DNA of 64,000 bases from Desulfobacterium sp. (GCA_030145245.1 JAQYWC010000070.1:6040-70039), one strand, 5' to 3'; shown: positions 14,189-52,336, counted from the stretch's first letter. Made by a program: numbers and translations. Notes: generated by a model from the sequence alone, not told the origin.

Positions 14189-14212
14189 TGAATCCTCCTC
14201 CCCAAAAGACGT

Positions 14213-18614: not shown

Positions 18615-18630
18615 TGGCACATTAGTTGCT
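18615..18630 (+). promoter_or_regulatory. Sigma-54 (RpoN) -24/-12 promoter upstream of the PEP-CTERM gene
   Basis: The sequence TGGCAC-attag-TTGCT matches the TGGCAC-N5-TTGCW consensus exactly. It lies 155 nt upstream of ATG 18785. Confidence 0.6.
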
Positions 18631-18784
18631 GAAGTTGAATAAGAATTCACTAAAAAGTGATATTTTCCTCAAAAGTCGTATTTTAACATCCATGATAAAG
18701 CCAAACCAGTGGCAACACTGGGACGGAAAGCCTAGGATCCCGTGGGGGGACAGCCGGTTGCCGTGGAAAAACATGGAGGTTGTT

Positions 18785-19417
18785 ATGAACAAGTTTTTCA
18801 GCTTTTTAATGGGGTTGTTTTTAGTCTTTGCGGTTGCAGAGGGTGCTGGTGCCTACAGTTTTGACATGGGGCCGAATTCTAATGTCGACGTAAGCGGCAC
18901 CCAAAATGCGTTAGAGTTGTATGCCACCGTCAACCCGAATTTAGATAGCATTCTGTTTAATCTTGAGGCAGGTCAATCACACGAGTTTTACTTCGCAACA
19001 ATCGGAACAACTGAATCATGGATCAACGCCGATGACGAGGAAACAGGGAACGTAGCTGCTAACATCGATTTTGAAATTCCAGATATAATTCAGGGAGTCA
19101 ACGGGGTATCTGTTGGCTTTTCAGGATGCCTTGAATTTACTCAAGGCTGGGATCTTACATGGAATGACCCTGTGTATGTTGATTTCGGTTATCAAAACAG
19201 TGGACGATTTTCAATTGAGTTATCAGATGTTAGTGGTTCAAACGGCTGGTGGCAAGGGCCAGGAAGCAGTGCAAAGGTCTTTGCTACAATAGCCCTGATG
19301 TCAGAGCCCAGTCTCGAGCCTGCGCCCGAGCCTATTCCAGAACCTGCAACCATGGTTCTTTTCGGCCTTGGCCTTGTCGGCCTTGCCGGAGTAACCAGGA
19401 AGAATTTCAGAAAGTAA
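18785..19417 (+). CDS. PEP-CTERM sorting-domain secreted protein
   Basis: GGAGG precedes ATG 18785. There is a signal peptide, and the C-terminus PEPATMVLFGLGLVGLAGVTRKNFRK has the PEP motif, a TM helix and a basic tail. Confidence 0.85.
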   Translation: MNKFFSFLMGLFLVFAVAEGAGAYSFDMGPNSNVDVSGTQNALELYATVNPNLDSILFNLEAGQSHEFYFATIGTTESWINADDEETGNVAANIDFEIPDIIQGVNGVSVGFSGCLEFTQGWDLTWNDPVYVDFGYQNSGRFSIELSDVSGSNGWWQGPGSSAKVFATIALMSEPSLEPAPEPIPEPATMVLFGLGLVGLAGVTRKNFRK

Positions 19418-24420: not shown

Positions 24421-25335
24421 ATGAAGCACCTTAATTCAAAAGCCCTTGCCGCCATCCTCAGGCACTTGAGATCCAGCCCCACCTTTGAATCCATCGGGGT
24501 AGACCAATACAGAACCCTGCTTGAGAAAAGCGCAAAAGCCTTTAAGGTCGACCCTGGAACCCGGATCTCCCCGGTGTCCGTCGACCAGGTTCCCGGAGCA
24601 TGGATCACACCGGACAAAACAAACGGCAACCACGTCATCCTCTACCTCCACGGAGGCGGATTCATGGGGGGCTCCATCAACACCCACAAGGATCTCGGCG
24701 CAAGGATCGCAGCTGCGGCCGGGGCAAGGCTTCTCATGCCCGGGTACAGGCTTGCCCCGGAGCATCCCTTTCCCGCCGGCCTCAGGGATGCGGTCACGGC
24801 CTACACCTGGCTTCTCGACCACCATGTCTCCCCGGAACACCTTGTGGTTGCAGGCGACTCCGCAGGGGGAGGCCTTGCCCTCTCCCTGCTCCTGAAGCTG
24901 AAGGAAAAGCAAATCCCCCTTCCAAGGGCGGCAGTGCTCATCTCCCCCTGGGCGGACCTGGCCTGCACCGGTGAGTCTCACCAACTGAACCTGGGAAAGG
25001 ATCCCATGCTGAATAAAAAGCTGCTGGTCTCAACCGCCGCCCATTACGTGGACAAAACCCGGTTGACCCATCCCCTGGTGTCCCCCGTCCACGGAGATAT
25101 CTCAGGCCTCTGCCCCCTCCTCATCCAGGTGGGAAACCGGGAGGTGCTGCTGGACGATTCCATCACCCTCGCAGCCAGGGCAAAAGAGGCCGGGGTGGAG
25201 GTCACCCTGGAGATCTGGGAGGAGATGTTCCATGTATGGCACTACTTTGCCCGCTATCTGGACACGGCCAGGGATGCCATCGACGGCATCGGCGGCTGGA
25301 TCAGGGCCCGGCTCAAAGCTTGGCCCCAGCCTTAA
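24421..25335 (+). CDS. Alpha/beta-hydrolase, hormone-sensitive-lipase-type esterase (copy 1, full length)
   Basis: The oxyanion motif is HGGGF and the nucleophile elbow is GDSAGG. A C-terminal D...H is consistent with the triad. Confidence 0.85.
   Translation: MKHLNSKALAAILRHLRSSPTFESIGVDQYRTLLEKSAKAFKVDPGTRISPVSVDQVPGAWITPDKTNGNHVILYLHGGGFMGGSINTHKDLGARIAAAAGARLLMPGYRLAPEHPFPAGLRDAVTAYTWLLDHHVSPEHLVVAGDSAGGGLALSLLLKLKEKQIPLPRAAVLISPWADLACTGESHQLNLGKDPMLNKKLLVSTAAHYVDKTRLTHPLVSPVHGDISGLCPLLIQVGNREVLLDDSITLAARAKEAGVEVTLEIWEEMFHVWHYFARYLDTARDAIDGIGGWIRARLKAWPQP
24556..25320 (+). repeat. Direct repeat, copy 1 (esterase paralog segment, 765 bp)
   Basis: It is collinear and indel-free with 34657-35421. 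Runs of up to ~59 identical nt occur (e.g. ctctacctccacggaggcggattcatgggggg...). Identity is roughly 85% by eye. Confidence 0.85.
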
Positions 25336-28911: not shown

Positions 28912-29384
28912 AGCGTTTAGACTCTACACGCTCACCCCAGGAATACGGTACCGATTTTCTCCTCGCCCGATCCGAAATTCAGCTCCTGGCAACCATTGGG
29001 GGACACAGCGGTTCAAGTGTAACCGAACTTGCGGAGCTCCATGCCGTGACCAAGGAAGCGATCTCAAAGACCCTGAAACAACTGGATACCAAAGGGCTCG
29101 CTGCAAAAGAAACGGACCCGTCCAACACCTCGAGGCTCCTTGTGGAGCTTTACCCTTCCGGGGCGATAACCCTTTCCCCCTATCCCCGGTTTACCGATGA
29201 ATGCATTTTTTGCTACAACTGCACGACGGTATGCCCCAAAGATGCAATTCTGGCGGATCTCTCGCAGATACCACCCATGCTCAGGAAAAGCGCCGGGGCG
29301 GCCTTGATGACCGCCCCGGAAACCCTATCCATGTTTTCTAATTGCTCATCTCTTCCATCTGACTCTCCCAGCTCCAACGGGTAA
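28908..29384 (+). pseudogene. Chimeric gene remnant: a MarR-like HTH fragment joined in frame to a single 4Fe-4S ferredoxin motif
   Basis: The open frame begins right after the oxidoreductase stop and has no good start codon. It reads LARSEIQLLATIGGHSGSSVTELAELHAVTKEAISKTLKQLDTKGLAAKETDPSNTSRLLVEL, then ...CIFCYNCTTVCPKDAI. Both parts are truncated relative to their families. Confidence 0.4.
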
Positions 29385-29823
29385 TCCAGAACAAGCGTTA
29401 AACAATGGGAGGTAACGTTACAGGCGAAACGATCGGAACGATAAGGCCCATGAACCGTAAAGGCATCCCCCTCTGCGAAAATCAGAGGACGGATTTAGGA
29501 CATTACAAAACACTTGCGCACCAATATATTGTATGCTATTTTGGTCATAACATTTCAAATTCACTAACAATAAATTTTATGCCCCCCCCATGCTTTTGCC
29601 GCCGAATTGACATCGGTACCAGATTTGAGATACATAATTGGCCCCACATGCGACCCAGCGGTTCCAACTCAATCAGGATCCACGTACTCCTTTCGCTCCT
29701 CCAGCAATAAAATTCGATCAAAGGTCTATAGGAGGATTCATGGAATTTATTAGGCTCATGTAATTTTGTTTGGATATGATTTCTCCTACAACTGCCATCT
29801 TTTTTTTATAAAAGGAAGCCATC

Positions 29824-30990
29824 ATGATGGGAAATGGTAATGATGCGGTTGGGAAAAACACAGGATACAGACCCGTAACTATCATCTGCCTTGCCATGGT
29901 TTTGCTGCTGGCTTTGGGTGGCGTTGCGCCCGGGAACAACTCCGAACATATGACTATTTATGAATATCTTCAGGTTCATCCGGAACAAAACCAGATTGCG
30001 GCAAACTTCAAGGCCACGATTCGCAGGAATGCGATCCCGGTGGAGCCGGGGGTTCAAGACCGGCCTGTGAAGGTCGCCATTATTTATCCGGCTTTGCAGA
30101 TTTCCGATTATTGGCGCAACAGTGTCCAATCTTTTAAAAAAAGAATGTTAGAAATCGATATCAAATTTCACACCTCGGAATATTATACCAAACCGACGGT
30201 GAACCACCGGATTCAGGAACGACAGATCAAAAAAGCGTTGGGAGACCGGCCGGATTACCTGATATTCACCCTGGACGCAAAAAAGCACCGCTGGCTCATT
30301 GAGCAGATTATCACACAAAAACACCCGAAAATCATTCTTCAGAACATCACCACCCCGCTTCGTATCTGGGAGGGAAAACAACCCTTTCTTTATGTCGGGT
30401 TCGACCATATTCAGGGTTCACTCATGCTTGCGAACTATCTGATAAAAAAGAATAACAACCGGGGGAAATATGCCCTTCTCTATTTTTCTGAAGGTTATGT
30501 CAGCAGGATGCGAGGAGATACATTTGTCAATTATCTTGATGAACATTCACAGATGGAACTGGTTGCAAAATATTATACCGGCGGCGACCCAGCCAAGGCG
30601 GAGGCAGCCGCCATGGAAATAGTCAAGTCAGATCCGGATATCAAATTCATTTACTCATGTTCCACGGACATTTCCCTGGGGGCTGCAAAGGCTCTGGAAC
30701 AGACCGGATTATCGGAACGGATCATGATTAACGGATGGGGGGGTGGCGCTGCTGAATTGAACGCCATGGCCCAGGGACAACTGGAGGTGACCGTCATGAG
30801 AATGAACGACGATAACGGTGTCGCCATGGCAGAGGCCATACGTCTCGATCTGGCCGGCCGGAGGCAGGACGTACCTGTGGTTTTCTGTGGGGATATGGAA
30901 CTTGTAAACACAACAACGCCTCGTAATCAGATAGAGCGTCTGAAAAAAAGAGCCTTTCGTTATTCCGGGAAGCCAGAGATCGAGAAATAA
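29824..30990 (+). CDS. luxP: LuxP-type periplasmic autoinducer-2 (furanosyl borate diester) binding protein
   Basis: A signal peptide is present. Full-length block similarity to my recollection of Vibrio harveyi LuxP: QISDYW, DYLIFTLD, ILQNITTP, QPFLYVGFDH, LYFSEGY, RGDTF, SCSTD, IMINGWGGG, VMRMNDD, AMAEAI, LKKRAFRYS. Confidence 0.8.
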   Translation: MMGNGNDAVGKNTGYRPVTIICLAMVLLLALGGVAPGNNSEHMTIYEYLQVHPEQNQIAANFKATIRRNAIPVEPGVQDRPVKVAIIYPALQISDYWRNSVQSFKKRMLEIDIKFHTSEYYTKPTVNHRIQERQIKKALGDRPDYLIFTLDAKKHRWLIEQIITQKHPKIILQNITTPLRIWEGKQPFLYVGFDHIQGSLMLANYLIKKNNNRGKYALLYFSEGYVSRMRGDTFVNYLDEHSQMELVAKYYTGGDPAKAEAAAMEIVKSDPDIKFIYSCSTDISLGAAKALEQTGLSERIMINGWGGGAAELNAMAQGQLEVTVMRMNDDNGVAMAEAIRLDLAGRRQDVPVVFCGDMELVNTTTPRNQIERLKKRAFRYSGKPEIEK

Positions 30991-31035
30991 AAAACGTGCT
31001 GTGATATTGCCGGATCAAGTCAGTGGGAGCTTGTA

Positions 31036-33747
31036 ATGAGCACAGTCCATCCAAAAAAACTATCCGTCGTCCTGGGCGGTTACCTCTGCTTTACCATCCT
31101 TGTATTTTCCGTTGTAATACTGATGTGGACCTACAATTCCGCAAGCGACCTGATCGATCGCGAAATGAAAAACAATTTCAGACAGGTAGAAAAGATATCC
31201 AAGCAGATCATCATGCGCGAATTCGACAAACTCGATCATTCCCTGACCACAATCCAGAGAAACGAGGCCTTACGCAGTTATCATCCCGGCGCCGGAGAGC
31301 TGAATGGCACAAAACACGATAACGCCATTGACCTGATGATCGCACTGACCGATTCAAATCCCCTGGACATCCTTTTCATTGCAAACCGGGACAATACCAT
31401 TTGGATTGACGCAAGTTCTCCGTTCTATGCGCCTGAGATGGATCTGTCGGAAATAGTCCGCAGGAAGAAAACGCTTATCCATGTCGGCGTGATAGACTGT
31501 TTTGCCGCCCACACGGCCTGCTTATCCGCACTTGTGAAAGCGGTTCCCCTTCTCTCAAAGGACACAGGCAAGGTTGTCGGAACCATATTTGGCGGAATTG
31601 TGCTTGAACACAATTTAAGATTGATGCAGGACATCCATGAAGAAACAGACTCTTCTGTATTATCTTTTTTTATAAATGGCCGTTTAATCGGTGCAACGGA
31701 TCATATGGACGCCGGAACAACCAAGGTTCTTGCTGTTGCCAGGCAAGGGGGCGAGGGAGAATTATTAGTTCAAGACCCCGATCCCGAGTCCGGGTCGCCG
31801 GGCCTTGTTTCCAGCTGGTTCACCATAGAAGTGCATGGGAAAAGAACCCCCCTTGAAATCGGTTCGGCCTTGCCCAGCACACCGTTTCTTAAGCTGAAGG
31901 AGGTGTATGTCCGGAAGGGCATCGTCCTGAGCTTTGTGTTCATGCTTCTGCCTTTTCTGACCATACTTATCATCAGGAAGATGACGTTCAGGCCCCTGGG
32001 GAATTTGCTGGAGTACGCAAAAGCGGTGTCATCCGGCAACTATGCAGCAGAATATCAGCAAGGAACCATTAAGGAGTTCAACCAATTGGGTACAGCCATG
32101 GAAAAAATGGTCATTGGACTTAAAACATCCAACACACAGCTCGTCATGGACATCAACAAGGTAAAAAAAGCGGAAAAAGCCCGGCTGCAAAGCGAAGAAC
32201 GTTACCAGGACCTGTTTGACAATGTGCCGGTCGGTTTATTCCGGAGCACCCCCCAGGGCCGGATCATTTCGGTAAACTACTCCTATATGAAAATGTTCGG
32301 TTTTCAATCCAAAAAGGAGATCCTGGCCTCCTTGAGGGCTGACTCCTTATATGTGGATAGAAAAGACCGTGGCCAGTTCCTGACCCATCTGAAAAAGCAC
32401 AAAAGCATTAAGCAGTTCGAAGTGCAGCTCAAGAGAAAGGACGACTCAATTTTCTGGGGTTCCCTCTCTGCCAGAAGCCACCTGAATTCAGAGGATAAAA
32501 TACAATGGATTGACGGACAAGTGGAGAATATTACCCAGCGTAAAAAGTCAGAGTTGGAAAAAGCCAGGCTCCATGCCCGGTTGAACCAGACCCACAAGAT
32601 GGAAGCCCTTGGCACCATGGCAGGCGGAATTTCCCATGATTTCAACAACATTCTTTCCGCAATCCTCGGTTTTTCAGAGTTCGCCCTGGAGAATACGTCA
32701 CCCGGGGACCCCCGGTACGAGTGCCTGGAAGAGATTTTAAAGGCCGGAGTCCGGGCCCGGGACCTGGTGAAGCAGATTCTCGCTTTCAGCAGACAGGGGG
32801 AACAGGAGATGAAGCCGTTAGAGCTCGAGCCCCTTGTAAGGGAAGCATTGAAACTCCTGCGCGCCTCCATCCCCAGTACCATTGATATTCAAATGGATAT
32901 CACGGATTGCCCGCCCGTAAACGCAGATGCCACCCAGATACACCAGGTCATCATGAACCTGGCCACAAATGCGGCCCAGGCCATGAACAAAAATACAGGT
33001 ATAATAAACGTATCCTTGCGGGAAGTGGATCTGGATCAGACGTTCATGGCTAAATACGCAGGGCTGGCAACGGGCCTCTACACCATGCTGACAGTACAGG
33101 ACACAGGATGCGGAATGACACCGGAAACGGAAATCCGGGCCTTTGACCCCTTCTTTACCACCAAAGATAAGGGATCCGGTACCGGTATGGGCCTGGCTGT
33201 AGTGCATGGCATTGTGCAGGATCATGGCGGGGTGATAACCGTCTACAGCGAACCCGGGACCGGGACGACCTTCAACGTTTATCTGCCGGTGTACAAAACC
33301 CGGGTCAAAGCCCCGCCGGAAATACAAATGGCCGCACAGCACGGCAGTGAAACCGTATTGTTCATAGATGATGAGGAACCGCTTTGCACCATCGGCAAGC
33401 GCATCCTTGAAACCCTGGGATATAGTGTACTTGCGACATGCTCAAGCCTGAAAGCCCTGGACATGTTCAAGGCTCAACCTGGGAAATACGACCTGGTTAT
33501 TACGGACCTGACCATGCCAAAACTGACCGGAAAACAACTCGCAAAGGAGATCACTGCCATCCGCCCCGGTATCCCTGTCATCCTGTGTACAGGATTCAGT
33601 GGTAACTCTTCTAACAATAAGGAGATCCGGGATCACGGGATCACTGCAGTGGTCCATAAACCGTTGTTAATCAGTGAGTTGGCAGAAACCGTTCGTACCA
33701 GCCTGGACCGGAACAGGATCCACGCCACACCACCTTCAATTCAGTAA
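31036..33747 (+). CDS. luxQ: LuxQ-like hybrid sensor histidine kinase (periplasmic domain, HAMP, PAS, HisKA, HATPase_c, REC)
   Basis: Two TM helices flank a ~270-aa periplasmic region. It contains TGKVVGTIFGGIVLEHNLRLMQDI, which resembles the LuxQ periplasmic block TGEVLGFSFNAVVLDNNFALMEKL. The H-box is GGISHDFNNIL, with N/G boxes and a receiver (VLFIDDE...DLVITDLTMPKLTG). It lies 46 nt downstream of luxP. Confidence 0.65.
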   Translation: MSTVHPKKLSVVLGGYLCFTILVFSVVILMWTYNSASDLIDREMKNNFRQVEKISKQIIMREFDKLDHSLTTIQRNEALRSYHPGAGELNGTKHDNAIDLMIALTDSNPLDILFIANRDNTIWIDASSPFYAPEMDLSEIVRRKKTLIHVGVIDCFAAHTACLSALVKAVPLLSKDTGKVVGTIFGGIVLEHNLRLMQDIHEETDSSVLSFFINGRLIGATDHMDAGTTKVLAVARQGGEGELLVQDPDPESGSPGLVSSWFTIEVHGKRTPLEIGSALPSTPFLKLKEVYVRKGIVLSFVFMLLPFLTILIIRKMTFRPLGNLLEYAKAVSSGNYAAEYQQGTIKEFNQLGTAMEKMVIGLKTSNTQLVMDINKVKKAEKARLQSEERYQDLFDNVPVGLFRSTPQGRIISVNYSYMKMFGFQSKKEILASLRADSLYVDRKDRGQFLTHLKKHKSIKQFEVQLKRKDDSIFWGSLSARSHLNSEDKIQWIDGQVENITQRKKSELEKARLHARLNQTHKMEALGTMAGGISHDFNNILSAILGFSEFALENTSPGDPRYECLEEILKAGVRARDLVKQILAFSRQGEQEMKPLELEPLVREALKLLRASIPSTIDIQMDITDCPPVNADATQIHQVIMNLATNAAQAMNKNTGIINVSLREVDLDQTFMAKYAGLATGLYTMLTVQDTGCGMTPETEIRAFDPFFTTKDKGSGTGMGLAVVHGIVQDHGGVITVYSEPGTGTTFNVYLPVYKTRVKAPPEIQMAAQHGSETVLFIDDEEPLCTIGKRILETLGYSVLATCSSLKALDMFKAQPGKYDLVITDLTMPKLTGKQLAKEITAIRPGIPVILCTGFSGNSSNNKEIRDHGITAVVHKPLLISELAETVRTSLDRNRIHATPPSIQ

Positions 33748-33792
33748 TACTTCCCAGGCCGTATGTTCACAGTATGATCCAAGGAGGGAGCT

Positions 33793-34623
33793 ATGAAAGC
33801 AGGCATCATTGGCGCCATGGATGAAGAGATCGAGATCTTGAAATCAAAGATTTCAAATCCCAGCTACTTGACACTGGGTGAATTTACCTTCATCTCCGGC
33901 AAAATTGAGGAGCTGGATGCCGTGGTGATGAAGTCGGGCATTGGAAAGGTGAACGCAGCCATCGGGACAACCCTGCTGATCACCTATTACAACCTGAACT
34001 GTGTCATCAACACGGGAACGGCGGGGGGCATTGATGATGCATTGGAGATCGGGGACGTCGTCATATCAAGTGAAATCCGTCACCACGATGTGGACGCCAC
34101 CGCTTTCGGGTACGAATATGGCCAGGTTCCCCGGATGCCGCCTTCTTATCTTCCCAACAAGGACTTGATGGAGATGGCACACCGATGCGTTTGCGACGAG
34201 GTTGGCAACGAAAAAACCGTGGTGGGGCTCATCGCCACAGGAGATTCTTTTATAGCTGACAGGGCTGCCATCGAATCGGTCAGAAAAAAAATGCCCACGA
34301 TTAAAGTAATTGAGATGGAAGCTGCGGCCATAGCGCAGACATGCCACCAGTTCGGCAAGAGCTTTCTGGCCATACGCTCGGTATCCGACCTGGCCGGGAA
34401 GAAATCCCCAAAGATCTTTAAATCGAATCTGAAAACAGCCTCCGGGAATTCCGCCTCCATCGTGCTGGAACTCCTTAAGGAATTGAAAAGATATGAGCAA
34501 AGGAATGAACGGCGATCTTCGGCTTCCCTCCGGAGCCGCAAGGCAGAGGAGTTAGAAAATGAAGGCAATCTCAAGTTTTACAATCGATCACAATCGCTTG
34601 TTGCCAGGCATCTGCGAGTATAG
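33793..34623 (+). CDS. mtnN: 5'-methylthioadenosine/S-adenosylhomocysteine nucleosidase (Pfs/MtnN) with a ~45-aa non-homologous C-terminal extension
   Basis: The sequence starts MKAGIIGAMDEEI and contains GKVNAA, NTGTAGG and EMEAAAIAQ...RSVSDLAG. GGAGGGAG is upstream. The family is typically ~230 aa, whereas this ORF is 276 aa. Confidence 0.85.
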   Translation: MKAGIIGAMDEEIEILKSKISNPSYLTLGEFTFISGKIEELDAVVMKSGIGKVNAAIGTTLLITYYNLNCVINTGTAGGIDDALEIGDVVISSEIRHHDVDATAFGYEYGQVPRMPPSYLPNKDLMEMAHRCVCDEVGNEKTVVGLIATGDSFIADRAAIESVRKKMPTIKVIEMEAAAIAQTCHQFGKSFLAIRSVSDLAGKKSPKIFKSNLKTASGNSASIVLELLKELKRYEQRNERRSSASLRSRKAEELENEGNLKFYNRSQSLVARHLRV

Positions 34624-34635
34624 GAACGACAGGGG

Positions 34636-35424
34636 ATGGAAGGTAACAGAAACGGAGGCACCAGGATCTCTCCTGTTTCCATTGACCATGTTCCCGGGGC
34701 ATGGATAACACCGGACAAGGTAAACTTCGACCGGGTCATCCTCTACCTCCACGGAGGCGGATTCATGGGGGGCTCCATCAACACCCACAAGGATCTCGGG
34801 GCAAGAATCGCAACCGCCGCCGGAGCAAGGCTTCTCATGCCCGAGTACAGACTTGCCCCGGAGCATCCTTTTCCCTGCGGCCTTAAGGATGCGGTCACGG
34901 CCTGCAAATGGCTTCTGGATCGCCATGTCTCCCCGGAGCAGATCGTGGTTGCAGGGGACTCCGCAGGGGGAGGCCTTGCCACCTCCCTGCTCCTGAAGCT
35001 GAAAAAGAACAACGCCCCCCTTCCAAAGGCAGGGGTGCTCATCTCCCCCTGGGTGGATCTTGCCTGCACCGGAAACTCCCACCACCTCAACCTTGGGAAG
35101 GATGCCATGCTGAACAAAGAGATGCTGGTCTCAACGGCGGCCCAATATGTGGATAAAACCCGGTTGAACCATCCCCTGGTATCGCCGGTCCATGGGGATC
35201 TCTCAGGCCTCTGCCCCCTCCTGATCCATGTGGGGAGCCGGGAGGTGCTGCTGGACGATTCCATCACCCTTGCAGCCAGGGCAAAAGAGGCAGGGGTAGA
35301 GGTCACCCTGGAGGTCTGGGAGGAGATGTTCCATGTGTGGCACTACTTTGCCCCCCATCTGGGCCAGGCCAGGGATGCCATCGACAGTATAGGTCAATGG
35401 ATAAGTGCCAGGTTCAAAGCTTAA
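34636..35424 (+). CDS. HSL-type esterase paralog (copy 2), N-terminally truncated or decayed
   Basis: HGGGF and GDSAGG are conserved. It is ~85% identical to copy 1 from GTRISPVS onward. It lacks the first ~45 aa of copy 1 and has a weak RBS. Confidence 0.7.
   Translation: MEGNRNGGTRISPVSIDHVPGAWITPDKVNFDRVILYLHGGGFMGGSINTHKDLGARIATAAGARLLMPEYRLAPEHPFPCGLKDAVTACKWLLDRHVSPEQIVVAGDSAGGGLATSLLLKLKKNNAPLPKAGVLISPWVDLACTGNSHHLNLGKDAMLNKEMLVSTAAQYVDKTRLNHPLVSPVHGDLSGLCPLLIHVGSREVLLDDSITLAARAKEAGVEVTLEVWEEMFHVWHYFAPHLGQARDAIDSIGQWISARFKA
34657..35421 (+). repeat. Direct repeat, copy 2 (esterase paralog segment, 765 bp)
   Basis: See 24556-25320. It has the same length and the same orientation. Confidence 0.85.
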
Positions 35425-38938: not shown

Positions 38939-40846
38939 TTAAATTCCCAGCTTTTTCCTCTTGTCCCTGATGATATCCATCAGCTTGCCGGCCGCCGAAG
39001 CCGGGTCCGGTTCCACAATGAAATAACCGCCGAACAGATCCCTGGTTCCTTCAGTCAAAAGATCCGTCACAATGGATGACCCCGTGACCTGGGGAATGGT
39101 TCCCACATGGGTCGGGATGCCAATGGCGACACTCCATGTGGCAATGGCAACCGCTTTTTCGGACATGGCTTCAGGTGCGGATGCGATCAACGGCAGATCA
39201 CTGAGGTCAACGCCCAGTTTGTTTGCCAGGGCAGTTGCCAGGTTTACCGCCCTGCTGTTATCCACACAGGATCCCATATGCAGCACCAGGGGAAGGGGCC
39301 CACCTAGTCCGCAGGCGTTTCCGATGGAGGTGAGTACCGCTTTCAACGATTCGCCTGCGTATTTTTCCGTGGCCTCCATGGTCATCAGGCCCTCCTTTGC
39401 GCAGGCTCCTGCGCCGCATCCCGATGCCAGAAGCAACACATTGTTTTCGGCCAGGTTTTTGGCGATGGTTTCAAAACTTCTGTCCTGGACACTCCGGGTG
39501 TTGTTGCACCCGGCCAGGAGCGCGATCCCCTGGATATTTCCGTTTACAATATTGTCGATCAGGGGTTTAAGGGGATCTTTTTCATCGAGTTTTGCAAGGG
39601 CCGCCACAATGGATTCAACACCAAAGCCAACCATTGCCGTCTGTTTAATATCGGGAATATTGACCCTTTTGGCGTCCCGCCGCCGGAACGCTTCAATGGC
39701 CAGCCCCAGAATTCTACGGGCGGTATCGCCTGCGCTCTCTTCGCTGAAGCTGACATGGGTTGCTCCCGTGATCTTGTTTTCATCCATGGTGGTGATCACT
39801 TCCGTGTGAAAACAGGCACCAATTTCACTTATGGAAGGCATGATACACTGAACGTCAACAACCATGGCATCCACAGCCCCCGTAATCAGGGCCATCTCCT
39901 GGGACAAGTAATTTGTAGCCAGGGGCACACCATGGCGTACCATCACTTCGTTTCCGGTGCAGCAGATACCGATGATATTGATTCCCGCCGGTGCACCCGC
40001 GTCAATGGCATCGCCGTTCATCTCCCCGGCAATGCTGCAGATCACTTCACTCAGCAGCGGGTTGTGACCATTGATTGCGATATTTACGGCATTCTCTTTG
40101 ATCACACCGAGGTTTGCCGATGTCACAACTGGGGATGGTGTTCCAAACAAAATATCAGACAGTTCCGTTGCCAGCACCATTCCGTTCAGATCGGCAAGGG
40201 CTCCCTTGACTCCCCCCAATACAACATTGGCAGGTTCGGCATCGCACCCCACATGGGTTCGGCCCATGATCTGGCAGACCACGGCATCGATGTTGTGTGG
40301 AAGCACATGAAGATCTTTCAGTTTATTAAAATGGTTGTCCGTGACAACGGTTTTTATCCAGTGGCAGGCGGTCTGGTGGTCCTGGTTCTGAAAATCTTCC
40401 AGGGTTTTTAATGCGACCTCTTCTGCAATTTTTAAGGTATCTCTGTTTTCAGTTTCAATATCAAGTTTTTGGGCGACACTTAAGAGTTTTTTTTCATCAC
40501 GGATTCCGTAGGCGGAAAACCTGCCCCTGGATACACCCCAAAGGGCCAGCACCACATGGCGTCCGTGCTCCGAATGAGCGGCAGCCCCTGCCGCCATCAT
40601 TCGGATAAGATTTCGCGCCACGATAGTGTGGGCATCAGCGCCGCAGATTCCGCGGTCAGGTCCCCCACCAAAGGGATCAATCCTGCAGGGGCCCTTCCAG
40701 CAGATTCTGCAGCACAGGCCAAGTGAACCAAAACCGCACTGGGGCTGCATCACTTCGTAGCGATCCCATACCGTGCTGATTTTATTTTTTTTAGCGATGG
40801 GAAGAAGTTCCTTTACTGCGGGATCTATGGATATTTTATTTTTCAT
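38939..40846 (-). CDS. cooS: Anaerobic Ni-Fe carbon monoxide dehydrogenase catalytic subunit
   Basis: The N-terminal cluster motif is CGFGSLGLCCRICWKGPCRI and CODH blocks run throughout. ATG 40846 forms an ATGA overlap with the cooF stop. An alternative ATG lies at 40873. Confidence 0.9.
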   Translation of the reverse strand: MKNKISIDPAVKELLPIAKKNKISTVWDRYEVMQPQCGFGSLGLCCRICWKGPCRIDPFGGGPDRGICGADAHTIVARNLIRMMAAGAAAHSEHGRHVVLALWGVSRGRFSAYGIRDEKKLLSVAQKLDIETENRDTLKIAEEVALKTLEDFQNQDHQTACHWIKTVVTDNHFNKLKDLHVLPHNIDAVVCQIMGRTHVGCDAEPANVVLGGVKGALADLNGMVLATELSDILFGTPSPVVTSANLGVIKENAVNIAINGHNPLLSEVICSIAGEMNGDAIDAGAPAGINIIGICCTGNEVMVRHGVPLATNYLSQEMALITGAVDAMVVDVQCIMPSISEIGACFHTEVITTMDENKITGATHVSFSEESAGDTARRILGLAIEAFRRRDAKRVNIPDIKQTAMVGFGVESIVAALAKLDEKDPLKPLIDNIVNGNIQGIALLAGCNNTRSVQDRSFETIAKNLAENNVLLLASGCGAGACAKEGLMTMEATEKYAGESLKAVLTSIGNACGLGGPLPLVLHMGSCVDNSRAVNLATALANKLGVDLSDLPLIASAPEAMSEKAVAIATWSVAIGIPTHVGTIPQVTGSSIVTDLLTEGTRDLFGGYFIVEPDPASAAGKLMDIIRDKRKKLGI

Positions 40847-41427
40847 GATTTCACCATTTTGACTTTTAGACAATTATGTGCGCAGGCAAGTTCCCTGGCC
40901 CTTGGATCCAACAGGGCAGCCCGGTACTCTTCCAGATTGACAAGTTTGATCGCCCTGGTGGGACAGGCTTCGACACAGGCGGGCTGTTTTCTGTTACCTT
41001 CGGCATCTCTTAATCCGGCACAGAGATCACATTTTTTAGCGACACCTCGCTTTTTTCTTTCGCTGTTAGTGATTACGCCTTCGGTTGTCACGGTTATTGC
41101 GCCAAAGGGACACACCTTGATACATAGTTTACAACCGACACAGGTCTTCTCATAAATCACAACACGCCCGTTTTCCTGCTTGATGGCAGAGGTGGGACAG
41201 ACAACTGCGCAGGGCGCATTTTCACACTGTCTGCATTGAACCGGAATGGTACCCCCCCCGGCCTTGACCACCCTGGTCCTGGAATGAAAGGCATTACCCG
41301 ACGCCGCAGCGTCAAAAAGGTCTCCCTCCCCATGGGCAACAGCACAGGCCAGCTCACAACTGTGACAGCCCAGGCACTTCTCCCCATCAGAAAAAATGGT
41401 TTCGTTTCCCTTATCTGGTTTCATCAT
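40843..41427 (-). CDS. cooF: CooF-type 4Fe-4S ferredoxin-like electron-transfer protein
   Basis: It has four Cys clusters of the CxxCxxCxxxC(P) type. It lies directly upstream of cooS and is translationally coupled to it. Confidence 0.85.
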   Translation of the reverse strand: MMKPDKGNETIFSDGEKCLGCHSCELACAVAHGEGDLFDAAASGNAFHSRTRVVKAGGGTIPVQCRQCENAPCAVVCPTSAIKQENGRVVIYEKTCVGCKLCIKVCPFGAITVTTEGVITNSERKKRGVAKKCDLCAGLRDAEGNRKQPACVEACPTRAIKLVNLEEYRAALLDPRARELACAHNCLKVKMVKS

Positions 41428-41525: not shown

Positions 41526-41642
41526 TTTCAGGAATTCTAAAGAAAATAATCATTTACAGTTTAAAAATATTGATTGTGATTGTGCCGCTTCGTATATGGG
41601 GGCAGAATATGGTAACATATCATTCAAAAAAGGAGAAATCGA

Positions 41643-42911
41643 ATGAAGAGCCTGGGAACCAGGAAAAGACCCGGCTTCTTTTTCACGCTTCTTCTCTTGG
41701 TGACGGCAACCGCAAGCGCCATATGCGGCACGGAAGAGGCCCGCAGAAAACAGACAGGAGTCAAAAGAATGCCGACAATGCCTGAAATCAACACCCCAAA
41801 CCGAATTACCCTGTTCATGTGCGGCGACGTGATGACAGGAAGAGGCGTCGATCAGGTCCTGCCCCATCCGAGCGATCCACGGATTTATGAAACCTATGCA
41901 AAGGATGCCCGGATCTACGTGGAGCTGGCCGAAAGGAGGAACGGCCCGGTCAGGAAACCCGTGCCATGGTCTTACATCTGGGGAGACGCACTTTCCGAGC
42001 TGAAGCTCAGGTCCCCTGACCTGAGAATCATCAACCTGGAAACCGCTGTCACAACAAGCAACGATTACTGTAAATACAAGGGAATCAATTACCGGATGCA
42101 TCCGAAGAATATTCCCGTGCTCACGGCAGCTGGCATTGATGTGGCCGTTCTGGCCAACAACCACGTGATCGACTGGGGAAACCAGGGGCTGATCGAAACA
42201 CTGGACACCCTCAGGTCGGCAAAAATTCGCCAGGCTGGCGCCGGCCGGGATCTTCAGGAAGCGGAATCACCGGCCGTAATGGAGATTGCGGGAAAGGGAC
42301 GGGTGCTGATTTTCTCATTCGGCCTGAATTCCAGCGGCATTCCAAATGAATGGGCGGCTAGGTCCCACAAGCCGGGTATTGCCCTGGCGCCGGATCTGTC
42401 TGGCAAAACCGTCCACCGCCTCAGGAATAAAATCTCGGCAATCCGTCAACAGGGGGATATCGTGGTTGCCTCCGTTCACTGGGGCGGGAACTGGGGATAC
42501 CGGGTCTCTACCGCTGAACAAAAATTTGCCCGCGCCATCATCGATGAAGCAGGTGTGGACATTGTCCACGGCCATTCCTCCCACCATGCCCGGGGAATCG
42601 AGGTATACCGGGACAAACCCATCATCTACGGCTGCGGCGACTTTATCAACGACTATGAAGGAATCGGGGGCCGGGAGGAATTCAGGGGAGACCTGGCCCT
42701 GAGCTATTTTATCACCATGGATCCGCAAAACAGAAAACTCATGGAACTGCACATCTCGCCCATGCAGATCAGAAATCTGAAACTAAACCGCGTATCACCG
42801 GCCGATGCTGCGTGGCTCAAAGAAACCCTGGGCCGGGAAGGCAAAAAACTGGGAACATGGGTAAAAATGCAAAAGGATCATACCCTGGGCATCCACTGGG
42901 AAACCAAATGA
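41643..42911 (+). CDS. CapA/PGA_cap-family metallophosphatase-like protein (poly-gamma-glutamate capsule synthesis family)
   Basis: It has a signal peptide. Family blocks are LFMCGDVMTGRGVD, NLETAVT, ANNHVIDWG, HWGGNW and GHSSHH. Confidence 0.8.
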   Translation: MKSLGTRKRPGFFFTLLLLVTATASAICGTEEARRKQTGVKRMPTMPEINTPNRITLFMCGDVMTGRGVDQVLPHPSDPRIYETYAKDARIYVELAERRNGPVRKPVPWSYIWGDALSELKLRSPDLRIINLETAVTTSNDYCKYKGINYRMHPKNIPVLTAAGIDVAVLANNHVIDWGNQGLIETLDTLRSAKIRQAGAGRDLQEAESPAVMEIAGKGRVLIFSFGLNSSGIPNEWAARSHKPGIALAPDLSGKTVHRLRNKISAIRQQGDIVVASVHWGGNWGYRVSTAEQKFARAIIDEAGVDIVHGHSSHHARGIEVYRDKPIIYGCGDFINDYEGIGGREEFRGDLALSYFITMDPQNRKLMELHISPMQIRNLKLNRVSPADAAWLKETLGREGKKLGTWVKMQKDHTLGIHWETK

Positions 42912-42915
42912 TCTT

Positions 42916-42956
42916 TTGCCGGCCTCCCGGAGGGTTCTCCGGAAGGCCGTCGGCAA
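42916..42956. terminator. GC-rich imperfect hairpin between the convergent capA and GDPD genes
   Basis: ttgcc-ggcctcccgga-gggttc-tccggaaggcc-gtc-ggcaa. There is no U-tract. Confidence 0.35.
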
Positions 42957-42977
42957 TTGTCACCTGCGAACTGAGAG

Positions 42978-44834
42978 TTAATTCAACAGGGCTTCAAGGG
43001 TGGCGGGATTGTCGGTCATGATCCCGTCCACATTCAGGTCCTCGATCAGCCATTGCATCTCTTCGGGATCATTGACGGTCCAGACCTGAACTTTCAGGCC
43101 CAATTCCCGGGCTTTGTCCATGATCAAGTGAGGAATGAGAGGAATCTCCGTAAGCGGTATCTGAAGGATGGCTCCCTTGGGCCTGTGTTTGTTCAGATCA
43201 AGAACCGCATCAGGCATGGCGATAAACTCGATCACCTCCTCGGTGGCAAAGGAGGTGAGCAGATTCATGCCGCGAACTGCGGACCTTATTCTGGCGGCAT
43301 CCAGGGACTGTTTATTGAATGCCCCCAGAACAATGCGGTTTTCCATGTTGAACTGCTGAATAAGTTCCAGCACCTTTTCCGTGATCTCCATATTGTTTTC
43401 CGGCTTTATTTCCAGAACAAAGGAAACATCCCGGCCCTGATACTCGCCGAACACCTCCGCAAGTGTCGGGATTTCAAGGGCCATGCCCTCCTCCCGGTAA
43501 GGAAAGGTGACCCCGTCCGGGGTAAAGTTGTAACCGGCATTCAGGCGTTTCAGATTCTCCAGGGAAAAAGCGCTGACCGGGCCGGTACCGTCGGTACAGC
43601 GGTCCACCGTGCCATCGTGGGACACGACCACACGGCCGTCTGCCGTGAGATGAACATCCATCTCAAGCACTTCCGCGCCTGCAGCCAAGGCGGTTTCGTA
43701 GGCTGTGAGCGTATTTTCAGGGTCCAGGTCACCGCCTCCCCTGTGGGCAATATTCAAGACCCTTTCATGGTCCTGCCTGAAGAAGTTGGCACCTGTGTCA
43801 ATGCCGTTGATCCGGTTCAGCACATCCAGCCAGTCCCAGCTGATATCGCGAATCTCAATCTCACCGTACCCCTCGGTGTCGAGGAGTCCCGGGTCAAGGT
43901 AATAGTCGATCTGAAACGAAATATAGGTCACACCGTTTGCAAGGGCGCCGAACCCGTCCTCACGGGCCGTATCCCCCACCATGGCGACAAGTTTGTCCTC
44001 CCCGTACAGCACGGAAAGGATTCTGATTGCATCCGCCTTGAAATCATTTCCCTCTTCAAAATCAAGATCCTTCTTGACCACAATGGGAATTCTTCTCTGG
44101 CCGCTCCGCTCAAAATGGCTGATCATCTGCTGCCGGCACAGGTGGCGCAAATCACCGGGAAGCCCTGAGACAACGACGAGGTCTCTTCCGTTATCCATCA
44201 AACCGTTTACGGCATCCACCACAAAACCGTCGATCAGCGGCCAGTCAGCGCCCACCCAGTTGACGAACTCAACCCAGTCAAAGACCGAGTTTGCCCCGCC
44301 GGTCCTGTGTAGGGTGTTGTCATGGTCCGACACAACGGCATCCGGGTTTTTCCCGGCCTGTTCATCAAGCACCCGGATCATTCCCAGATCGTCCTCAACA
44401 TACTCATCCTTGTAATACGCCCGGGCTCTCAGCTGCAAATCCACTGGTGCGGAAGCGATTACCGGTTTCGGCAGCCACCGTCTGATTTCCGGCAGCCTGA
44501 CCTTGCCGCCCTGGTCTGTATAAAGGGCCGGGGCATCCTCCCCCAGCCGGAACCAGGCCCCATCCGAGCCATAGAGCCTTGCAAAGAACCTGACCTCCAC
44601 CCCTTCCACTTTTTCAGCGGTCACAAACTTCAGCAGGGAGGCCTTGTCCTTGTCTTTCATATGATAGACCGTTGCATTGGGAAGGATTTCATCGTTACCC
44701 GCGCTAAAGCAAGTATTTGTAATTCCGTCCGAGACAACCACGGCATAGTCGTCCTTATCGCACCCGGATAAGAGAGCAGCAAAAGAGACGATCAGCAAAA
44801 CAAAAACAAGATCCAGAGATTTTCTGACAGACAT
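42978..44834 (-). CDS. Lipoprotein fusing a HAD/App1-like (DUF2183-type) phosphatase domain to a glycerophosphodiester phosphodiesterase (GDPD) domain
   Basis: The lipobox LLSGC follows MSVRKSLDLVFVLLIVSFAA, and GGGAGG is upstream of ATG 44834. The HAD motifs are VVSDHDNTL and GDTAREDG. The GDPD core is NIAHRGG...ENT...E.DV.LT.DG..VV.HD. Confidence 0.8.
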   Translation of the reverse strand: MSVRKSLDLVFVLLIVSFAALLSGCDKDDYAVVVSDGITNTCFSAGNDEILPNATVYHMKDKDKASLLKFVTAEKVEGVEVRFFARLYGSDGAWFRLGEDAPALYTDQGGKVRLPEIRRWLPKPVIASAPVDLQLRARAYYKDEYVEDDLGMIRVLDEQAGKNPDAVVSDHDNTLHRTGGANSVFDWVEFVNWVGADWPLIDGFVVDAVNGLMDNGRDLVVVSGLPGDLRHLCRQQMISHFERSGQRRIPIVVKKDLDFEEGNDFKADAIRILSVLYGEDKLVAMVGDTAREDGFGALANGVTYISFQIDYYLDPGLLDTEGYGEIEIRDISWDWLDVLNRINGIDTGANFFRQDHERVLNIAHRGGGDLDPENTLTAYETALAAGAEVLEMDVHLTADGRVVVSHDGTVDRCTDGTGPVSAFSLENLKRLNAGYNFTPDGVTFPYREEGMALEIPTLAEVFGEYQGRDVSFVLEIKPENNMEITEKVLELIQQFNMENRIVLGAFNKQSLDAARIRSAVRGMNLLTSFATEEVIEFIAMPDAVLDLNKHRPKGAILQIPLTEIPLIPHLIMDKARELGLKVQVWTVNDPEEMQWLIEDLNVDGIMTDNPATLEALLN

Positions 44835-45028
44835 GGATACCTCCCGTTTGAATAGGTTCAAGAAATTGACCTTCGACAAAACAATGGGACAAACAGCGAT
44901 TTTTTAAATACGCTTAAAACGATGTAACCGGAAAAAAAGGACAGATGGGCTTTTGTGACGCAGATAGAAAAATAGCGTGAAACAAAGGGGATGTCAAATA
45001 GAAGCTGAGGGAACCGGTGGATGGAGAA

Positions 45029-45056
45029 GAGCCGGGCTGAAAGCTTAGCCCGGCTC
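45029..45056 (-). terminator. Hairpin downstream of purM
   Basis: A perfect 10-bp stem gagccgggct/agcccggctc, extendable to 12 bp, lies 19 nt past the purM stop. The U-tract is weak. Confidence 0.5.
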
Positions 45057-45074
45057 TTTAAACAGCAGGTCTTT

Positions 45075-46112: not shown

Positions 46113-46305
46113 TTTTTATTTATCCCTCCTGGTCAATCAGAATTAAACCATCTTCCTGGTTGGCATTTTTTATTATAGTTCCTCGCATATGAATAGATCT
46201 CATTTCATATCATATCGGGAAAGCAGGTATCAATTCAAATGGAAACATTTATAAGCTTGCCCCCGGCCGGGCCGCCAAAAACAGCAACCACCGGGGGCAT
46301 CCGGC

Positions 46306-50061: not shown

Positions 50062-50179
50062 TTTTATCTCCCTGGTTCAATGTGATGCCTTATTATTTAT
50101 AGTTGAACATTGACTTACCACAGGTTATTGTATAAACAAAATTAATAATTATAACTTCACTTGTAAGCAGAGCTAATGT

Positions 50180-52331: not shown

Positions 52332-52336
52332 CCATT

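Follow-up and report, generated by a model that had tools for sequence, protein, structure and literature searches.

Why does an anaerobic member of the Desulfobacteraceae carry genes for a Vibrio-type AI-2 receptor together with pfs, and where would the signal for that receptor come from? AI-2 has been termed a universal bacterial signal, while critics have long regarded luxS as merely metabolic outside Vibrio and the carriers of Lsr. Their case is based partly on the point that linkage of the synthase gene to receptor genes is not known.

The locus was analyzed within a 64-kb stretch of DNA (the window). An earlier note had placed three ORFs at 29824-34623, and all were present at exactly those positions (Table 1); their identification was correct, the first encoding an orthologue of LuxP, the second a hybrid histidine kinase of the LuxQ type and the third the nucleosidase Pfs/MtnN. 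The luxQ-type gene does lie downstream of luxP, with an intergenic gap of 45 nt and not the 46 nt given. The reported neighbors were also recovered (Prismane/CODH, 38939-40873; PEP-CTERM, 18626-19417; Tll0287-like heme-c sensors), and the suspected Desulfobacterota-like host agrees with the nearest genome, a Desulfobacteraceae MAG. The best matches of the window were to Desulfobacterales proteins, and the exact window LuxP sequence had no contig match on record.

Table 1. Positions of the genes, kinase domains and unit boundaries, counted in the window
Feature	Position	Strand	Details
Leader (candidate promoter region)	29498-29823	+	Travels with cassette; L001 homology begins at 29498
luxP	29824-30990	+	388 aa ORF
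luxQ-type hybrid sensor histidine kinase	31036-33747	+	903 aa ORF
Kinase periplasmic tandem-PAS LuxQ domain	31132-31920 (aa ~33-295)	+	Pfam, PDB profile
Kinase hydrophobic segments	aa 8-33 (TM1); aa 292-316 (TM2)		Flank the periplasmic domain
Kinase core, HisKA with H534 and HATPase_c	32608-33291	+	Pfam
Kinase REC with D824	33355-33693	+	Pfam Response_reg
pfs/mtnN	33793-34623	+	276 aa ORF
Putative luxS stub, MKAISSFTIDHNRLLPGICEY	34559-34621	+	ATG and 20 further codons, lying within the 3' end of pfs but not in its frame
Right boundary of unit	34624-34626	.	L001 homology stops 3 nt past the pfs stop

The LuxP-LuxQ-Pfs trio and its known relatives

In a phmmer search of the PDB, the first ORF matched V. 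harveyi LuxP chains (1jx6, 1zhh_A, 2hj9_A, 4yp9_A; E 7e-97, 328 bits) over residues 46-382, in line with the near full-length likeness first noticed, and was 45% identical to V. harveyi LuxP across 335 aligned residues. Among the other families with solved structures, the best match was to ribose-type binding proteins, at just 2.5e-10. The shared sequence blocks listed previously were visible in the V. harveyi alignment, except that QISDYW was inexact (QVSDYW in V. harveyi). The residues reported to contact S-THMF-borate in V. harveyi LuxP (Q77, S79, W82, N159, R215, T266 and R310) correspond to Q92, S94, W97, N174, R230, T281 and R326 of the window LuxP, and the claimed conservation was complete (7/7 identical). 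Of these contacts, Arg215 and Arg310 are also given in PMC3794749. Across 82 LuxP homologues, W82, N159, R215, T266 and R310 were invariant, Q77 was present in 81 and S79 in 77.

The AF2 model of the window LuxP (pLDDT 88.5) was compared by overall fold in Foldseek, and this predicted structure superposed on AI-2-bound 1jx6 with a TM of 0.96 and rmsd of 1.5 Å (339 columns), and more poorly on apo 1zhh_A (2.9 Å). The top 8 Foldseek matches were all LuxP (E ~1e-40) and the next family followed at 1e-18, so that the protein clustered with LuxP over sugar binders in both sequence and fold searches. A signal-like hydrophobic segment was found at the N terminus (residues 13-38). From its sequence, the window LuxP is taken to be a periplasmic AI-2 binding protein, with S-THMF-borate as the presumed ligand. 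LsrB is likewise a Peripla_BP_4 protein that binds a form of AI-2, in its case R-THMF without borate, which it passes to an ABC importer (Lsr); the window protein differs in grouping with LuxP, not with LsrB or ribose binders, and no ABC transporter genes adjoined luxP/luxQ among the neighboring window ORFs.

The kinase carries the Pfam LuxQ-periplasm domain (PF09308, residues 39-221, score 60.2 bits, threshold 25.7), and the LuxQ-like block that had been quoted, TGKVVGTIFGGIVLEHNLRLMQDI (residues 177-200), aligns to GTGQVVGYLYVGIVLNDNFALLENIR of V. cholerae LuxQ. Further Pfam domains were HAMP (under the Pfam cut-off), PAS, HisKA, HATPase_c and Response_reg, with the phospho-His H534 in SHDFNN and the phospho-Asp D824 in LVITDLTMP. 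Searched against the PDB as a single sequence, the kinase found the LuxQ periplasmic domain 3c30 (E 5e-8). A profile of 16 non-Vibrio orthologues, built from the luxP-adjacent partners in the relatives' loci, matched LuxQ periplasmic structures only (3c30, E 1.9e-24, profile 34-281 on chain 5-247, covering both PAS folds; 1zhh_B, E 2e-21), which upholds homology to the LuxQ tandem-PAS domain. The NCBIfam LuxQ_Vibrio equivalog (NF041947) aligned to residues 7-884 with 194.5 bits, short of its 1200-bit cut-off, and VirA-like and CckA models outscored it on the cytoplasmic core. On sequence grounds the kinase is a LuxQ-family sensor and not an equivalog of Vibrio LuxQ, and because its cytoplasmic part is nearer to the CckA/VirA type, its signalling logic may differ.

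Compared with V. harveyi and V. cholerae LuxPQ (1jx6, 1zhh, 2hj9, 3c30), the window pair has the same LuxP fold, identical AI-2 contacts, luxP immediately upstream of luxQ, and a membrane hybrid kinase in which the LuxQ tandem-PAS periplasmic domain is followed by HisKA, HATPase and, at the C terminus, a receiver. Differences are the limited identity (merely 45% for LuxP and ~20-25% for the LuxQ periplasmic domain), the recognizable HAMP and PAS domains with a CckA/VirA-like core, and the anaerobic Desulfobacteraceae host. The third gene passed two NCBIfam equivalog cut-offs (NF004079, 249.4 bits, cut-off 169; TIGR01704, 245.3 bits, cut-off 73.8) and matched Pfam PNP_UDP_1, as expected of Pfs/MtnN. 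It contains AMDEE, EMEA and SDLA motifs, which would correspond to the catalytic residues of the E. coli enzyme.

The belief that LuxP/LuxQ receptors are essentially confined to Vibrionales did not survive. LuxP homologues were reported from delta-proteobacteria and Oceanospirillales, including luxP, luxQ-like and pfs genes in a row in Marinomonas MED121, the order seen in the window (Rezzonico & Duffy 2008, PMC2561040); a 2016 review tabulated Desulfovibrio LuxP homologues (PMC5187520); and LuxP relatives were found here in 491 species genomes. In a 2025 survey, LuxP homologues of Proteobacteria and Deferribacterota bound AI-2 (PMC12268683), and a 2025 cold-seep study recovered luxS, luxQ and luxP in MAGs that were mainly Desulfobacterota (PMC12781772). 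Several of the closest homologues are already named LuxP by NCBI and JGI. The Pfam scan of luxP-adjacent partner genes covered 54 of 68, and all 54 carried PF09308. The LuxP and LuxQ-periplasmic pair emerged from this wider survey as a common, portable input module, which in many marine lineages is coupled to kinases or to c-di-GMP enzymes, PP2C phosphatases and a chemoreceptor. Vibrio LuxP formed a monophyletic clade with the window protein outside it in 60/60 bootstraps, which rules out recent transfer from Vibrio; the label 'Vibrio-type' holds for LuxPQ homology and fails as a statement of recent import. A clean 'Desulfobacterota LuxP clade' was tried and was unsupported (18/60 bootstraps).

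The presence of LuxPQ in Desulfobacterota is documented already, and the window locus adds nothing to it. The reported non-Vibrio genes (Dace_1280, Dde_3311, and those of Desulfovibrio hydrothermalis/piezophilus/alaskensis, Neptuniibacter and Marinomonas MED121) are of the same families, with the window's own phylum represented. These earlier reports are gene lists, whereas a relocating cassette, linked luxP-luxQ-pfs-luxS genes and a luxS remnant were not found described. New here are the discrete, relocated unit, the Pfs relatives in luxP-luxQ-pfs-luxS clusters, and the 21-codon luxS stub.

Extent and position of the unit

Window positions 29498-34626 matched positions 9708-14794 of a related locus (L001) at 84% identity by blastn, delimiting a discrete 5.1-kb unit in which luxP, luxQ and pfs follow a 326-nt leader. 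The backbone that L001 shares in synteny with the window lies elsewhere in the latter (41627-51071 and 51870-54816). Homology breaks off sharply on both sides, in front of the leader and past the pfs stop, and the two backbones are otherwise collinear; among related genomes of the Desulfobacteraceae, the unit occupies differing sites. The same trio stands behind another upstream gene in a third genome (L084). Three independent assemblies agree on content, whereas both ends are defined only by the comparison of the window with L001 and by that of two further contigs described below (L087 and L088).

Within the leader, a sigma-70-like promoter is predicted at ~29521-29549 (TTGCGC, 17 nt, TG-n-TATTTT) and a consensus scan returned a weaker promoter-like site at 29502-29530, so the leader may act as a promoter. 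Its RBS-proximal segment was conserved in an alignment of the window, L001, L084 and L086, and its middle (~29615-29785) was missing from L084. No known RNA element, such as a SAM/SAH riboswitch, matched the leader in Rfam (E <= 1). A motif common to the leaders of the trio and the four-gene clusters (TATGCTAT) was too short to claim as a shared promoter.

An ordinary chromosomal LuxPQ locus, beside a housekeeping pfs by chance, might look similar if its positions differed through rearrangement or MAG misassembly. Such a locus would fit the finding that, among 84 luxP loci, luxPQ followed by pfs occurred in the window lineage only. The ends of the cassette in the window showed no direct or inverted terminal repeats and no transposase, IS element or integrase, and there are several other indels between the window and L001 (for example, 54816-63154 is missing from L001). 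Every sequence is moreover a metagenomic assembly, so that chimeric joins could mimic relocation. The sharp block ends between otherwise collinear backbones speak against an ordinary locus, as do the relatives of the unit.

Four-gene relatives and a putative luxS remnant

Two contigs, L087 and L088 (Logan SRR34261172 and SRR34261234), carry luxP-luxQ-pfs-luxS. Their genes are collinear with and orthologous to those of the window (L087, full length: LuxP 55%, LuxQ 43% over 891 aa, Pfs 58% identical), and likewise form a discrete unit between unrelated flanks. L087 and L088 are 95% identical in nucleotides within the four-gene block and share no identity beyond it, and a Tn3 transposase fragment adjoins, which is difficult to reconcile with the ordinary-locus explanation. 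Their LuxS is intact (159-163 aa, with HxxEH and GCRTGF motifs) and its gene shares 44 nt with the 3' end of pfs, whereas the window retains the first 21 luxS codons only. The intact four-gene cassette was seen on three short contigs from related samples only (L087-L089). A metagenome scan with the cassette LuxS recovered only distant LuxS (<=60% identity), mostly from gut and fermentation samples, and gave no further four-gene cassettes (0 of 80 loci with luxP or luxQ).

The closest relatives of the window Pfs (54-59% identity) include P0123 and P0128, on L087 and L088, and no named Desulfobacterales protein was nearer, its own lineage excepted. They share with it a C-terminal extension of ~45 aa, which reaches into what was once the start of luxS. 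Across 268 aa, the window and L087/L088 Pfs proteins are 58% identical. In pfs-luxS operons of Firmicutes and gut anaerobes, luxS also directly follows pfs, overlapping it in one example (L090, Pfs 53% identical to that of the window), and the arrangement was present in 13 of 80 luxS loci. These operons differ in having no receptor genes attached, and the cassette LuxS of L087/L088 is just ~31% identical to that of L090.

The stub was compared with the LuxS N terminus of L087/L088 (MKNIFSFAIDHERLKRGIFVA). It was identical at 12/21 positions in the luxS frame, as against 5/20 when either of the remaining frames was read, a match expected by chance at ~2e-9 (binomial). Nucleotide differences per luxS codon position were 7/7/14, a third-position excess. 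The same stub is present in L001 and L084, and the three sequences diverge directly past the pfs stop. The segment looks like a remnant of luxS, cut after ~21 codons with the remainder of the gene gone. Since the closest Pfs proteins lie in luxP-luxQ-pfs-luxS clusters and the stub adjoins, the cassette looks to have lost its synthase; to judge from the shared stub, the truncation most likely goes back to the ancestor that the window lineage has in common. luxP, luxQ and pfs remain under purifying selection in the luxS-less genomes (dN/dS 0.13-0.28).

For an ordinary locus, the stub would be a by-product of the Pfs C-terminal extension. As it has 21 codons only and overlaps the pfs frame, pfs could explain part of its conservation. 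The better match in the luxS than in the pfs frame, the third-position excess and the nearness of the window Pfs to cassette-borne Pfs all count against that explanation, and we consider it improbable. The cassette probably descends from a self-contained four-gene 'talk and listen' ancestor (luxP-luxQ-pfs-luxS), of which the window would hold a 5.1-kb derivative ending in a dead luxS stub, and which would persist intact on the related Desulfobacterota-like contigs. A broader proposal is put forward tentatively, at slightly less than even weight: that a self-contained, promoter-bearing LuxPQ-Pfs-LuxS unit of ~5.3 kb circulates by horizontal transfer in marine Desulfobacterota, that luxS was lost once, and that the window carries a muted, still-moving and selected eavesdropper.

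Signal source, proposed circuit and meaning

In agreement with the earlier note, no intact luxS, luxU or luxO was found in the window: tblastn with four LuxS queries (one Pfam-validated) found no intact luxS in the 64 kb, and neither Hpt nor a LuxO-like sigma-54 activator occurred among the Pfam-scanned window ORFs, which comprised all but six of those >=150 aa. No Qrr sRNA was detected in the window at the Rfam gathering threshold. The arrangement near luxPQ differs in these partners from the Vibrio circuit, and also in linkage, luxS being unlinked to luxPQ in Vibrio and pfs being co-linear here, with a luxS stub. At one related locus (L002), more kinases and a REC-sigma-54 activator lie downstream of luxPQ. 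The signal source, posed as an open question, now has a partial answer in that the cassette appears formerly to have encoded LuxS.

A second luxS elsewhere in the genome would allow AI-2 still to be made, and would make of the locus the receptor arm in a full quorum-sensing circuit for self-signalling, as in Vibrio. Some Desulfobacterota are listed with LuxS homologues (D. hydrothermalis, D. salexigens, Desulfotalea; PMC5187520), the abundance of luxS correlates with that of luxP in the cold-seep MAGs dominated by Desulfobacterota (PMC12781772), and purifying selection on pfs fits a working Pfs-LuxS pathway. No luxS was found, however, in the window, nor did any lie within 10 kb of a further 80 luxP loci, and the cassette luxS was lost and never regained in three diverged lineages. 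Pfs also has roles independent of LuxS, namely removal of MTA and of 5'-deoxyadenosine, which could account for its retention. We regard a second luxS as plausible, yet on balance somewhat unlikely.

We infer the following scheme, including its kinase/phosphatase switch, co-transcription, downstream partners and eavesdropping lifestyle. LuxP would be exported to the periplasm, take up S-THMF-borate via the same seven side chains as in V. harveyi, and be seated on the tandem-PAS periplasmic domain of LuxQ in the membrane. By analogy with Vibrio, ligand would rearrange the LuxPQ dimer and shift LuxQ from kinase towards phosphatase. Phosphate would pass from H534 to D824 in the receiver, and onwards to two partners presumably encoded outside the window, namely an Hpt protein and then a response regulator. 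Apparently co-transcribed with luxP-luxQ, pfs would supply an enzyme converting S-adenosylhomocysteine to S-ribosylhomocysteine and clearing MTA. Barring another luxS in the genome, the cassette would merely listen to the AI-2 of neighbors, an eavesdropping role already proposed for luxS-negative carriers in 2008 (PMC2561040).

The pair might instead sense another ligand, such as a borate-diol adduct or a pentose derivative, and act as a nutrient or environment sensor with no quorum-sensing role. By family, LuxP is a ribose-type periplasmic binding protein, luxS was reported missing from many hosts of LuxP homologues (PMC2561040), and the chemotaxis, c-di-GMP turnover and PP2C phosphatases that the pair drives in other taxa are typical of environmental sensing. 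Conservation of all seven AI-2 contacts, though no proof of the ligand, argues otherwise, as does the retention of AI-2 by non-Vibrio LuxP homologues in the MM32 reporter assay (PMC12268683). In the presumed ancestral cassette, moreover, the receptor genes are physically linked with those for both enzymes of AI-2 synthesis, which argues for AI-2 as the cognate ligand, and a different ligand appears very unlikely.

In the relatives of the window, the receptor is physically joined to Pfs and LuxS in what would be one transferable unit, whereas the 2008 study had explicitly found luxS never to be linked with receptor genes (PMC2561040). The window would represent what is left once the synthase goes while the receptor stays under selection. 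If the proposal of a mobile unit is true, it would be the first case of AI-2 synthase and receptor physically linked in one unit, a natural case of a signaller turned listener, and evidence at the genome level for AI-2 as a real signal, not a mere metabolic by-product, in these anaerobes. The locus offers a testable system for whether AI-2 is a true signal in sulfate-reducing sediment and symbiont communities, and for the evolution of 'listeners' out of 'talkers'.

Identity of the receptor genes

The three ORFs proposed as a Vibrio-type luxP-luxQ-pfs module in the earlier note were present as it described them, with 45-nt gaps between ORF1 and ORF2 and between ORF2 and ORF3.

Positions of the receptor genes and neighboring features in the window
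Feature	Position	Strand	Description
c-di-GMP-I riboswitch	18690-18765	+	RF01051, 57.6 bits (gathering score 35)
Short Fer4 ORF	29046-29384	+	just 5' of the cassette
5.1-kb unit	29498-34626		luxP-luxQ-pfs with a 326-nt leader; right end 3 nt after the pfs stop codon
luxP (ORF1)	29824-30990	+	388 aa
luxQ-type hybrid kinase (ORF2)	31036-33747	+	903 aa
pfs (ORF3)	33793-34623	+	276 aa

A Peripla_BP_4 domain was identified in ORF1 (Pfam). Among solved structures, the best matches of ORF1 were V. harveyi LuxP chains (E = 7e-97, residues 46-382; 45% identity over 335 aligned residues), whereas the next solved family, the ribose and allose binders, reached only 2.5e-10, which bore out the assignment as LuxP. 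The S-THMF-borate contacts of V. harveyi LuxP, which we take to be Q77, S79, W82, N159, R215, T266 and R310, were identical at 7/7 positions in the window protein (Q92, S94, W97, N174, R230, T281 and R326), in agreement with the conservation claimed earlier. Two of these, R215 and R310, are supported as AI-2 contacts (PMC3794749). The AlphaFold2 model of ORF1 (mean pLDDT 88.5) superposed on AI-2-bound LuxP (1jx6) with TM 0.96 and rmsd 1.5 Å. Its eight top PDB structure matches were all LuxP, and ordinary sugar-binding proteins trailed by >20 orders of magnitude. By homology, AI-2 would be the ligand.

ORF2 carried a LuxQ-periplasm domain (Pfam, 60 bits, cut-off 25.7) flanked by hydrophobic segments 8-33 and 292-316, together with HAMP (below cut-off), PAS, HisKA, HATPase_c and Response_reg domains, phospho-acceptor His534 and receiver Asp824. 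Searched as a single sequence, ORF2 hit 3c30, the periplasmic domain of V. cholerae LuxQ, with an E-value of 5e-8. A profile built from 16 non-Vibrio luxP-adjacent periplasmic domains was run against PDB and matched LuxQ periplasmic structures only (3c30, 1.9e-24; 1zhh_B, 2e-21; 2hj9_C, 8.5e-18), with both PAS folds covered in the alignments to 3c30 and 1zhh_B; homology to the LuxQ tandem PAS was upheld. The window LuxQ is of the hybrid-kinase type, like Vibrio LuxQ, but it scored 194.5 bits against the NCBIfam Vibrio-LuxQ equivalog, far under the cut-off of 1200, and its kinase core scored higher with VirA-like and CckA models. Homology suggests that it may switch between kinase and phosphatase.

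ORF3 scored above the cut-offs of the NCBIfam equivalog models of MTA/SAH nucleosidase and is accordingly Pfs/MtnN, as had been proposed. Its nearest relatives were a metagenomic group (54-59% identity) with the same unusual C-terminal extension, and no close relative named as Desulfobacterales was found outside its own lineage. Among 84 luxP loci, pfs followed luxPQ in the window lineage only. Co-transcription of the three genes is probable by homology. Among the three luxS-less genomes, dN/dS was 0.13-0.22 for luxP, 0.25-0.28 for luxQ and 0.16-0.18 for pfs, values indicating purifying selection and no decay. Judged from sequence and modeled structure, 29824-34623 encodes a genuine AI-2 receptor of the LuxPQ type.

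LuxPQ outside Vibrio and its partner outputs

The view that LuxPQ is nearly restricted to Vibrionales did not stand against reports from 2008, 2016 and 2025 and the genomes scanned here. LuxP homologues were described in Desulfuromonas acetoxidans, Desulfovibrio desulfuricans, Neptuniibacter and Marinomonas MED121, the last with luxP, a luxQ-like gene and pfs consecutive, and eavesdropping by luxS-negative carriers was proposed in the same study (Rezzonico & Duffy 2008, PMC2561040). A 2016 review listed three Desulfovibrio species with LuxP homologues at 42-44% identity (PMC5187520), a 2025 survey gathered 267 LuxP proteins and found AI-2 retention for three, from Proteobacteria and Deferribacterota (PMC12268683), and in a 2025 cold-seep study the MAGs carrying luxS, luxQ and luxP were mainly Desulfobacterota (PMC12781772). 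The window LuxP matched 1285 database proteins at E <= 1e-20, many from Desulfobacterales MAGs and some already named LuxP. When each species was represented by one genome, a LuxP relative was encoded in 491 of those scanned, the best 80 of which were from Desulfobacterota, the Arcobacter group, Oceanospirillales, Alphaproteobacteria, Bacteriovoracaceae, Ca. Vecturithrix and Vibrio. In a neighbor-joining tree, the window and Desulfobacteraceae MAG LuxP were a sister pair (60/60 bootstraps), and deeper groupings were weak (18/60). Vibrio LuxP was monophyletic with the window protein outside it (60/60), so there was no sign of a recent import from Vibrio. The window LuxPQ is a further case of a kind already reported.

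A large gene lay -22 to +130 nt after luxP in nearly all loci compared. A LuxQ-periplasm domain was present in all 54 partner proteins scanned with Pfam (loci L004-L083; examples are L024:11126-14176, L005:11233-13470 and L007:11110-13077), and outputs varied: histidine kinase (HATPase_c) in 36, of which 14 had a receiver and 2 a fused Hpt, GGDEF-EAL in 15 (Oceanospirillales), SpoIIE phosphatase in 2 and a chemoreceptor (MCP) in 1. The SpoIIE/PP2C partners came from Desulfococcaceae and Desulfobulbaceae, and the chemoreceptor partner from Ca. Vecturithrix. The LuxP and LuxQ-periplasm sensor pair is a general module; a review of solute-binding proteins in signaling had Vibrio LuxPQ as its sole entry for the LuxQ-periplasmic domain (PMC8050422).

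The window yielded no Qrr sRNA, and neither an Hpt nor a sigma-54 regulator appeared among its ORFs scanned with Pfam (all but six of those of at least 150 aa). In a relative with a 56% identical LuxP (L002:10001-20334), luxP-luxQ was followed by two further hybrid kinases and a REC-sigma-54 activator; its LuxQ is a kinase for which the eight listed Pfam families did not include Response_reg. This activator forms a LuxO-like end of the relay, for which no counterpart was found in the window. Further sensory and c-di-GMP genes were dense at 259-1740, 1741-3840, 6865-9981 and 10069-11358 (Tll0287-like sensors fused to PAS/GGDEF, a Reg_prop/Y_Y_Y-GGDEF protein and a FIST-SpoIIE phosphatase), and a gene for a PEP-CTERM-anchored protein, ending at 19417, lay directly 3' of the c-di-GMP-I riboswitch.

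Probable relocation of the cassette

The closest genome, MAG Desulfobacteraceae Bse_4 (L001, identical to L004), carried the same trio, with LuxP 87% identical (BLAST). By blastn, the trio block matched L001 9708-14794 at 84% identity, and the backbone (L001 241-9604 and 16105-19171) matched window 41627-51071 and 51870-54816. These collinear matches place the 5.1-kb unit ~20 kb from where it is inserted in L001. In L084 (94%), a third relative, the window's downstream neighbors were present together with a different upstream gene. No terminal repeats or mobility genes were found at the window junctions of the unit; a promoter-like motif was present in its leader, which matched no known RNA element. 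Every sequence compared is a metagenome assembly. The window locus is probably a relocating cassette.

At the position of the short Fer4 ORF, L084 has an intact 336-aa FMN_bind/Fer4_5 gene, and the sole stretch there still matching L084 (window 29286-29390) is intergenic in L084. This mismatch, with the differing L001 upstream gene, suggests that the left edge of the cassette was rearranged more than once. Two Abhydrolase_3 paralogues (24421-25335 and 34636-35424; 84% amino-acid and 86% nucleotide identity) lie on either side of ~9.3 kb in which the luxPQ-pfs unit is accompanied by MarR, a molybdopterin oxidoreductase and a ferredoxin remnant; near its 5' end, the second copy is ~141 nt shorter than the single L084 orthologue. 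The ~8.3 kb at 54816-63154 (a metallo-beta-lactamase-fold protein, MFS transporter, MarR, LUD/LutB-type lactate-utilization genes and a cold-shock protein) was missing from the otherwise collinear L001.

A four-gene form and the luxS remnant

On contigs of two Pfs-group members (L087 and L088), luxP, luxQ (911-aa hybrid kinase), pfs and luxS were consecutive, with luxS starting 44 nt inside the pfs end and HxxEH and GCRTGF motifs in the L087 LuxS. Window identity to L087 was 55% for LuxP, 43% for LuxQ (over 891 aa) and 58% for Pfs. The block (L087:420-5765, L088:667-6003) was 95% identical in nucleotides with unrelated flanks, and since similarity was confined to these 5.35 kb, the intact four-gene form, too, acts as a discrete unit. 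L089 held the cluster as well, and these three short contigs of related samples were the only ones in which it was found. A Tn3-family transposase fragment (DDE_Tnp_Tn3, 352-507) lay just 5' of the L088 block. A metagenome scan with the cassette LuxS returned distant LuxS only, none near receptor genes. In the part of the literature that was searched, no paper described a linked luxPQ-pfs-luxS cluster, and physical linkage of AI-2 receptor genes to a synthase gene was not reported.

With four LuxS queries, one of them Pfam-validated, tblastn gave no intact luxS in the window, and none at 80 other luxP loci searched out to 10 kb. An ATG at 34559, off the pfs frame, opens MKAISSFTIDHNRLLPGICEY, which was identical at 12/21 positions to the LuxS N-terminus MKNIFSFAIDHERLKRGIFVA (chance probability ~2e-9). 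The other two frames over these nucleotides gave 5/20 identity each, and nucleotide differences at luxS codon positions 1, 2 and 3 were 7, 7 and 14. The stub was common to the window, L001 and L084, which all diverged from LuxS and from each other right after the pfs stop; the simplest reading would be one luxS truncation in their common ancestor.

On these alignments, the window cassette is a predicted descendant of a combined receptor-plus-synthase unit, with a recognizable luxS remnant. LuxPQ outside Vibrio, the earlier note's main ground for excitement, falls as already published; the locus is of moderate interest as a probable relocating cassette from a receptor-plus-synthase ancestor, which goes beyond that first view.
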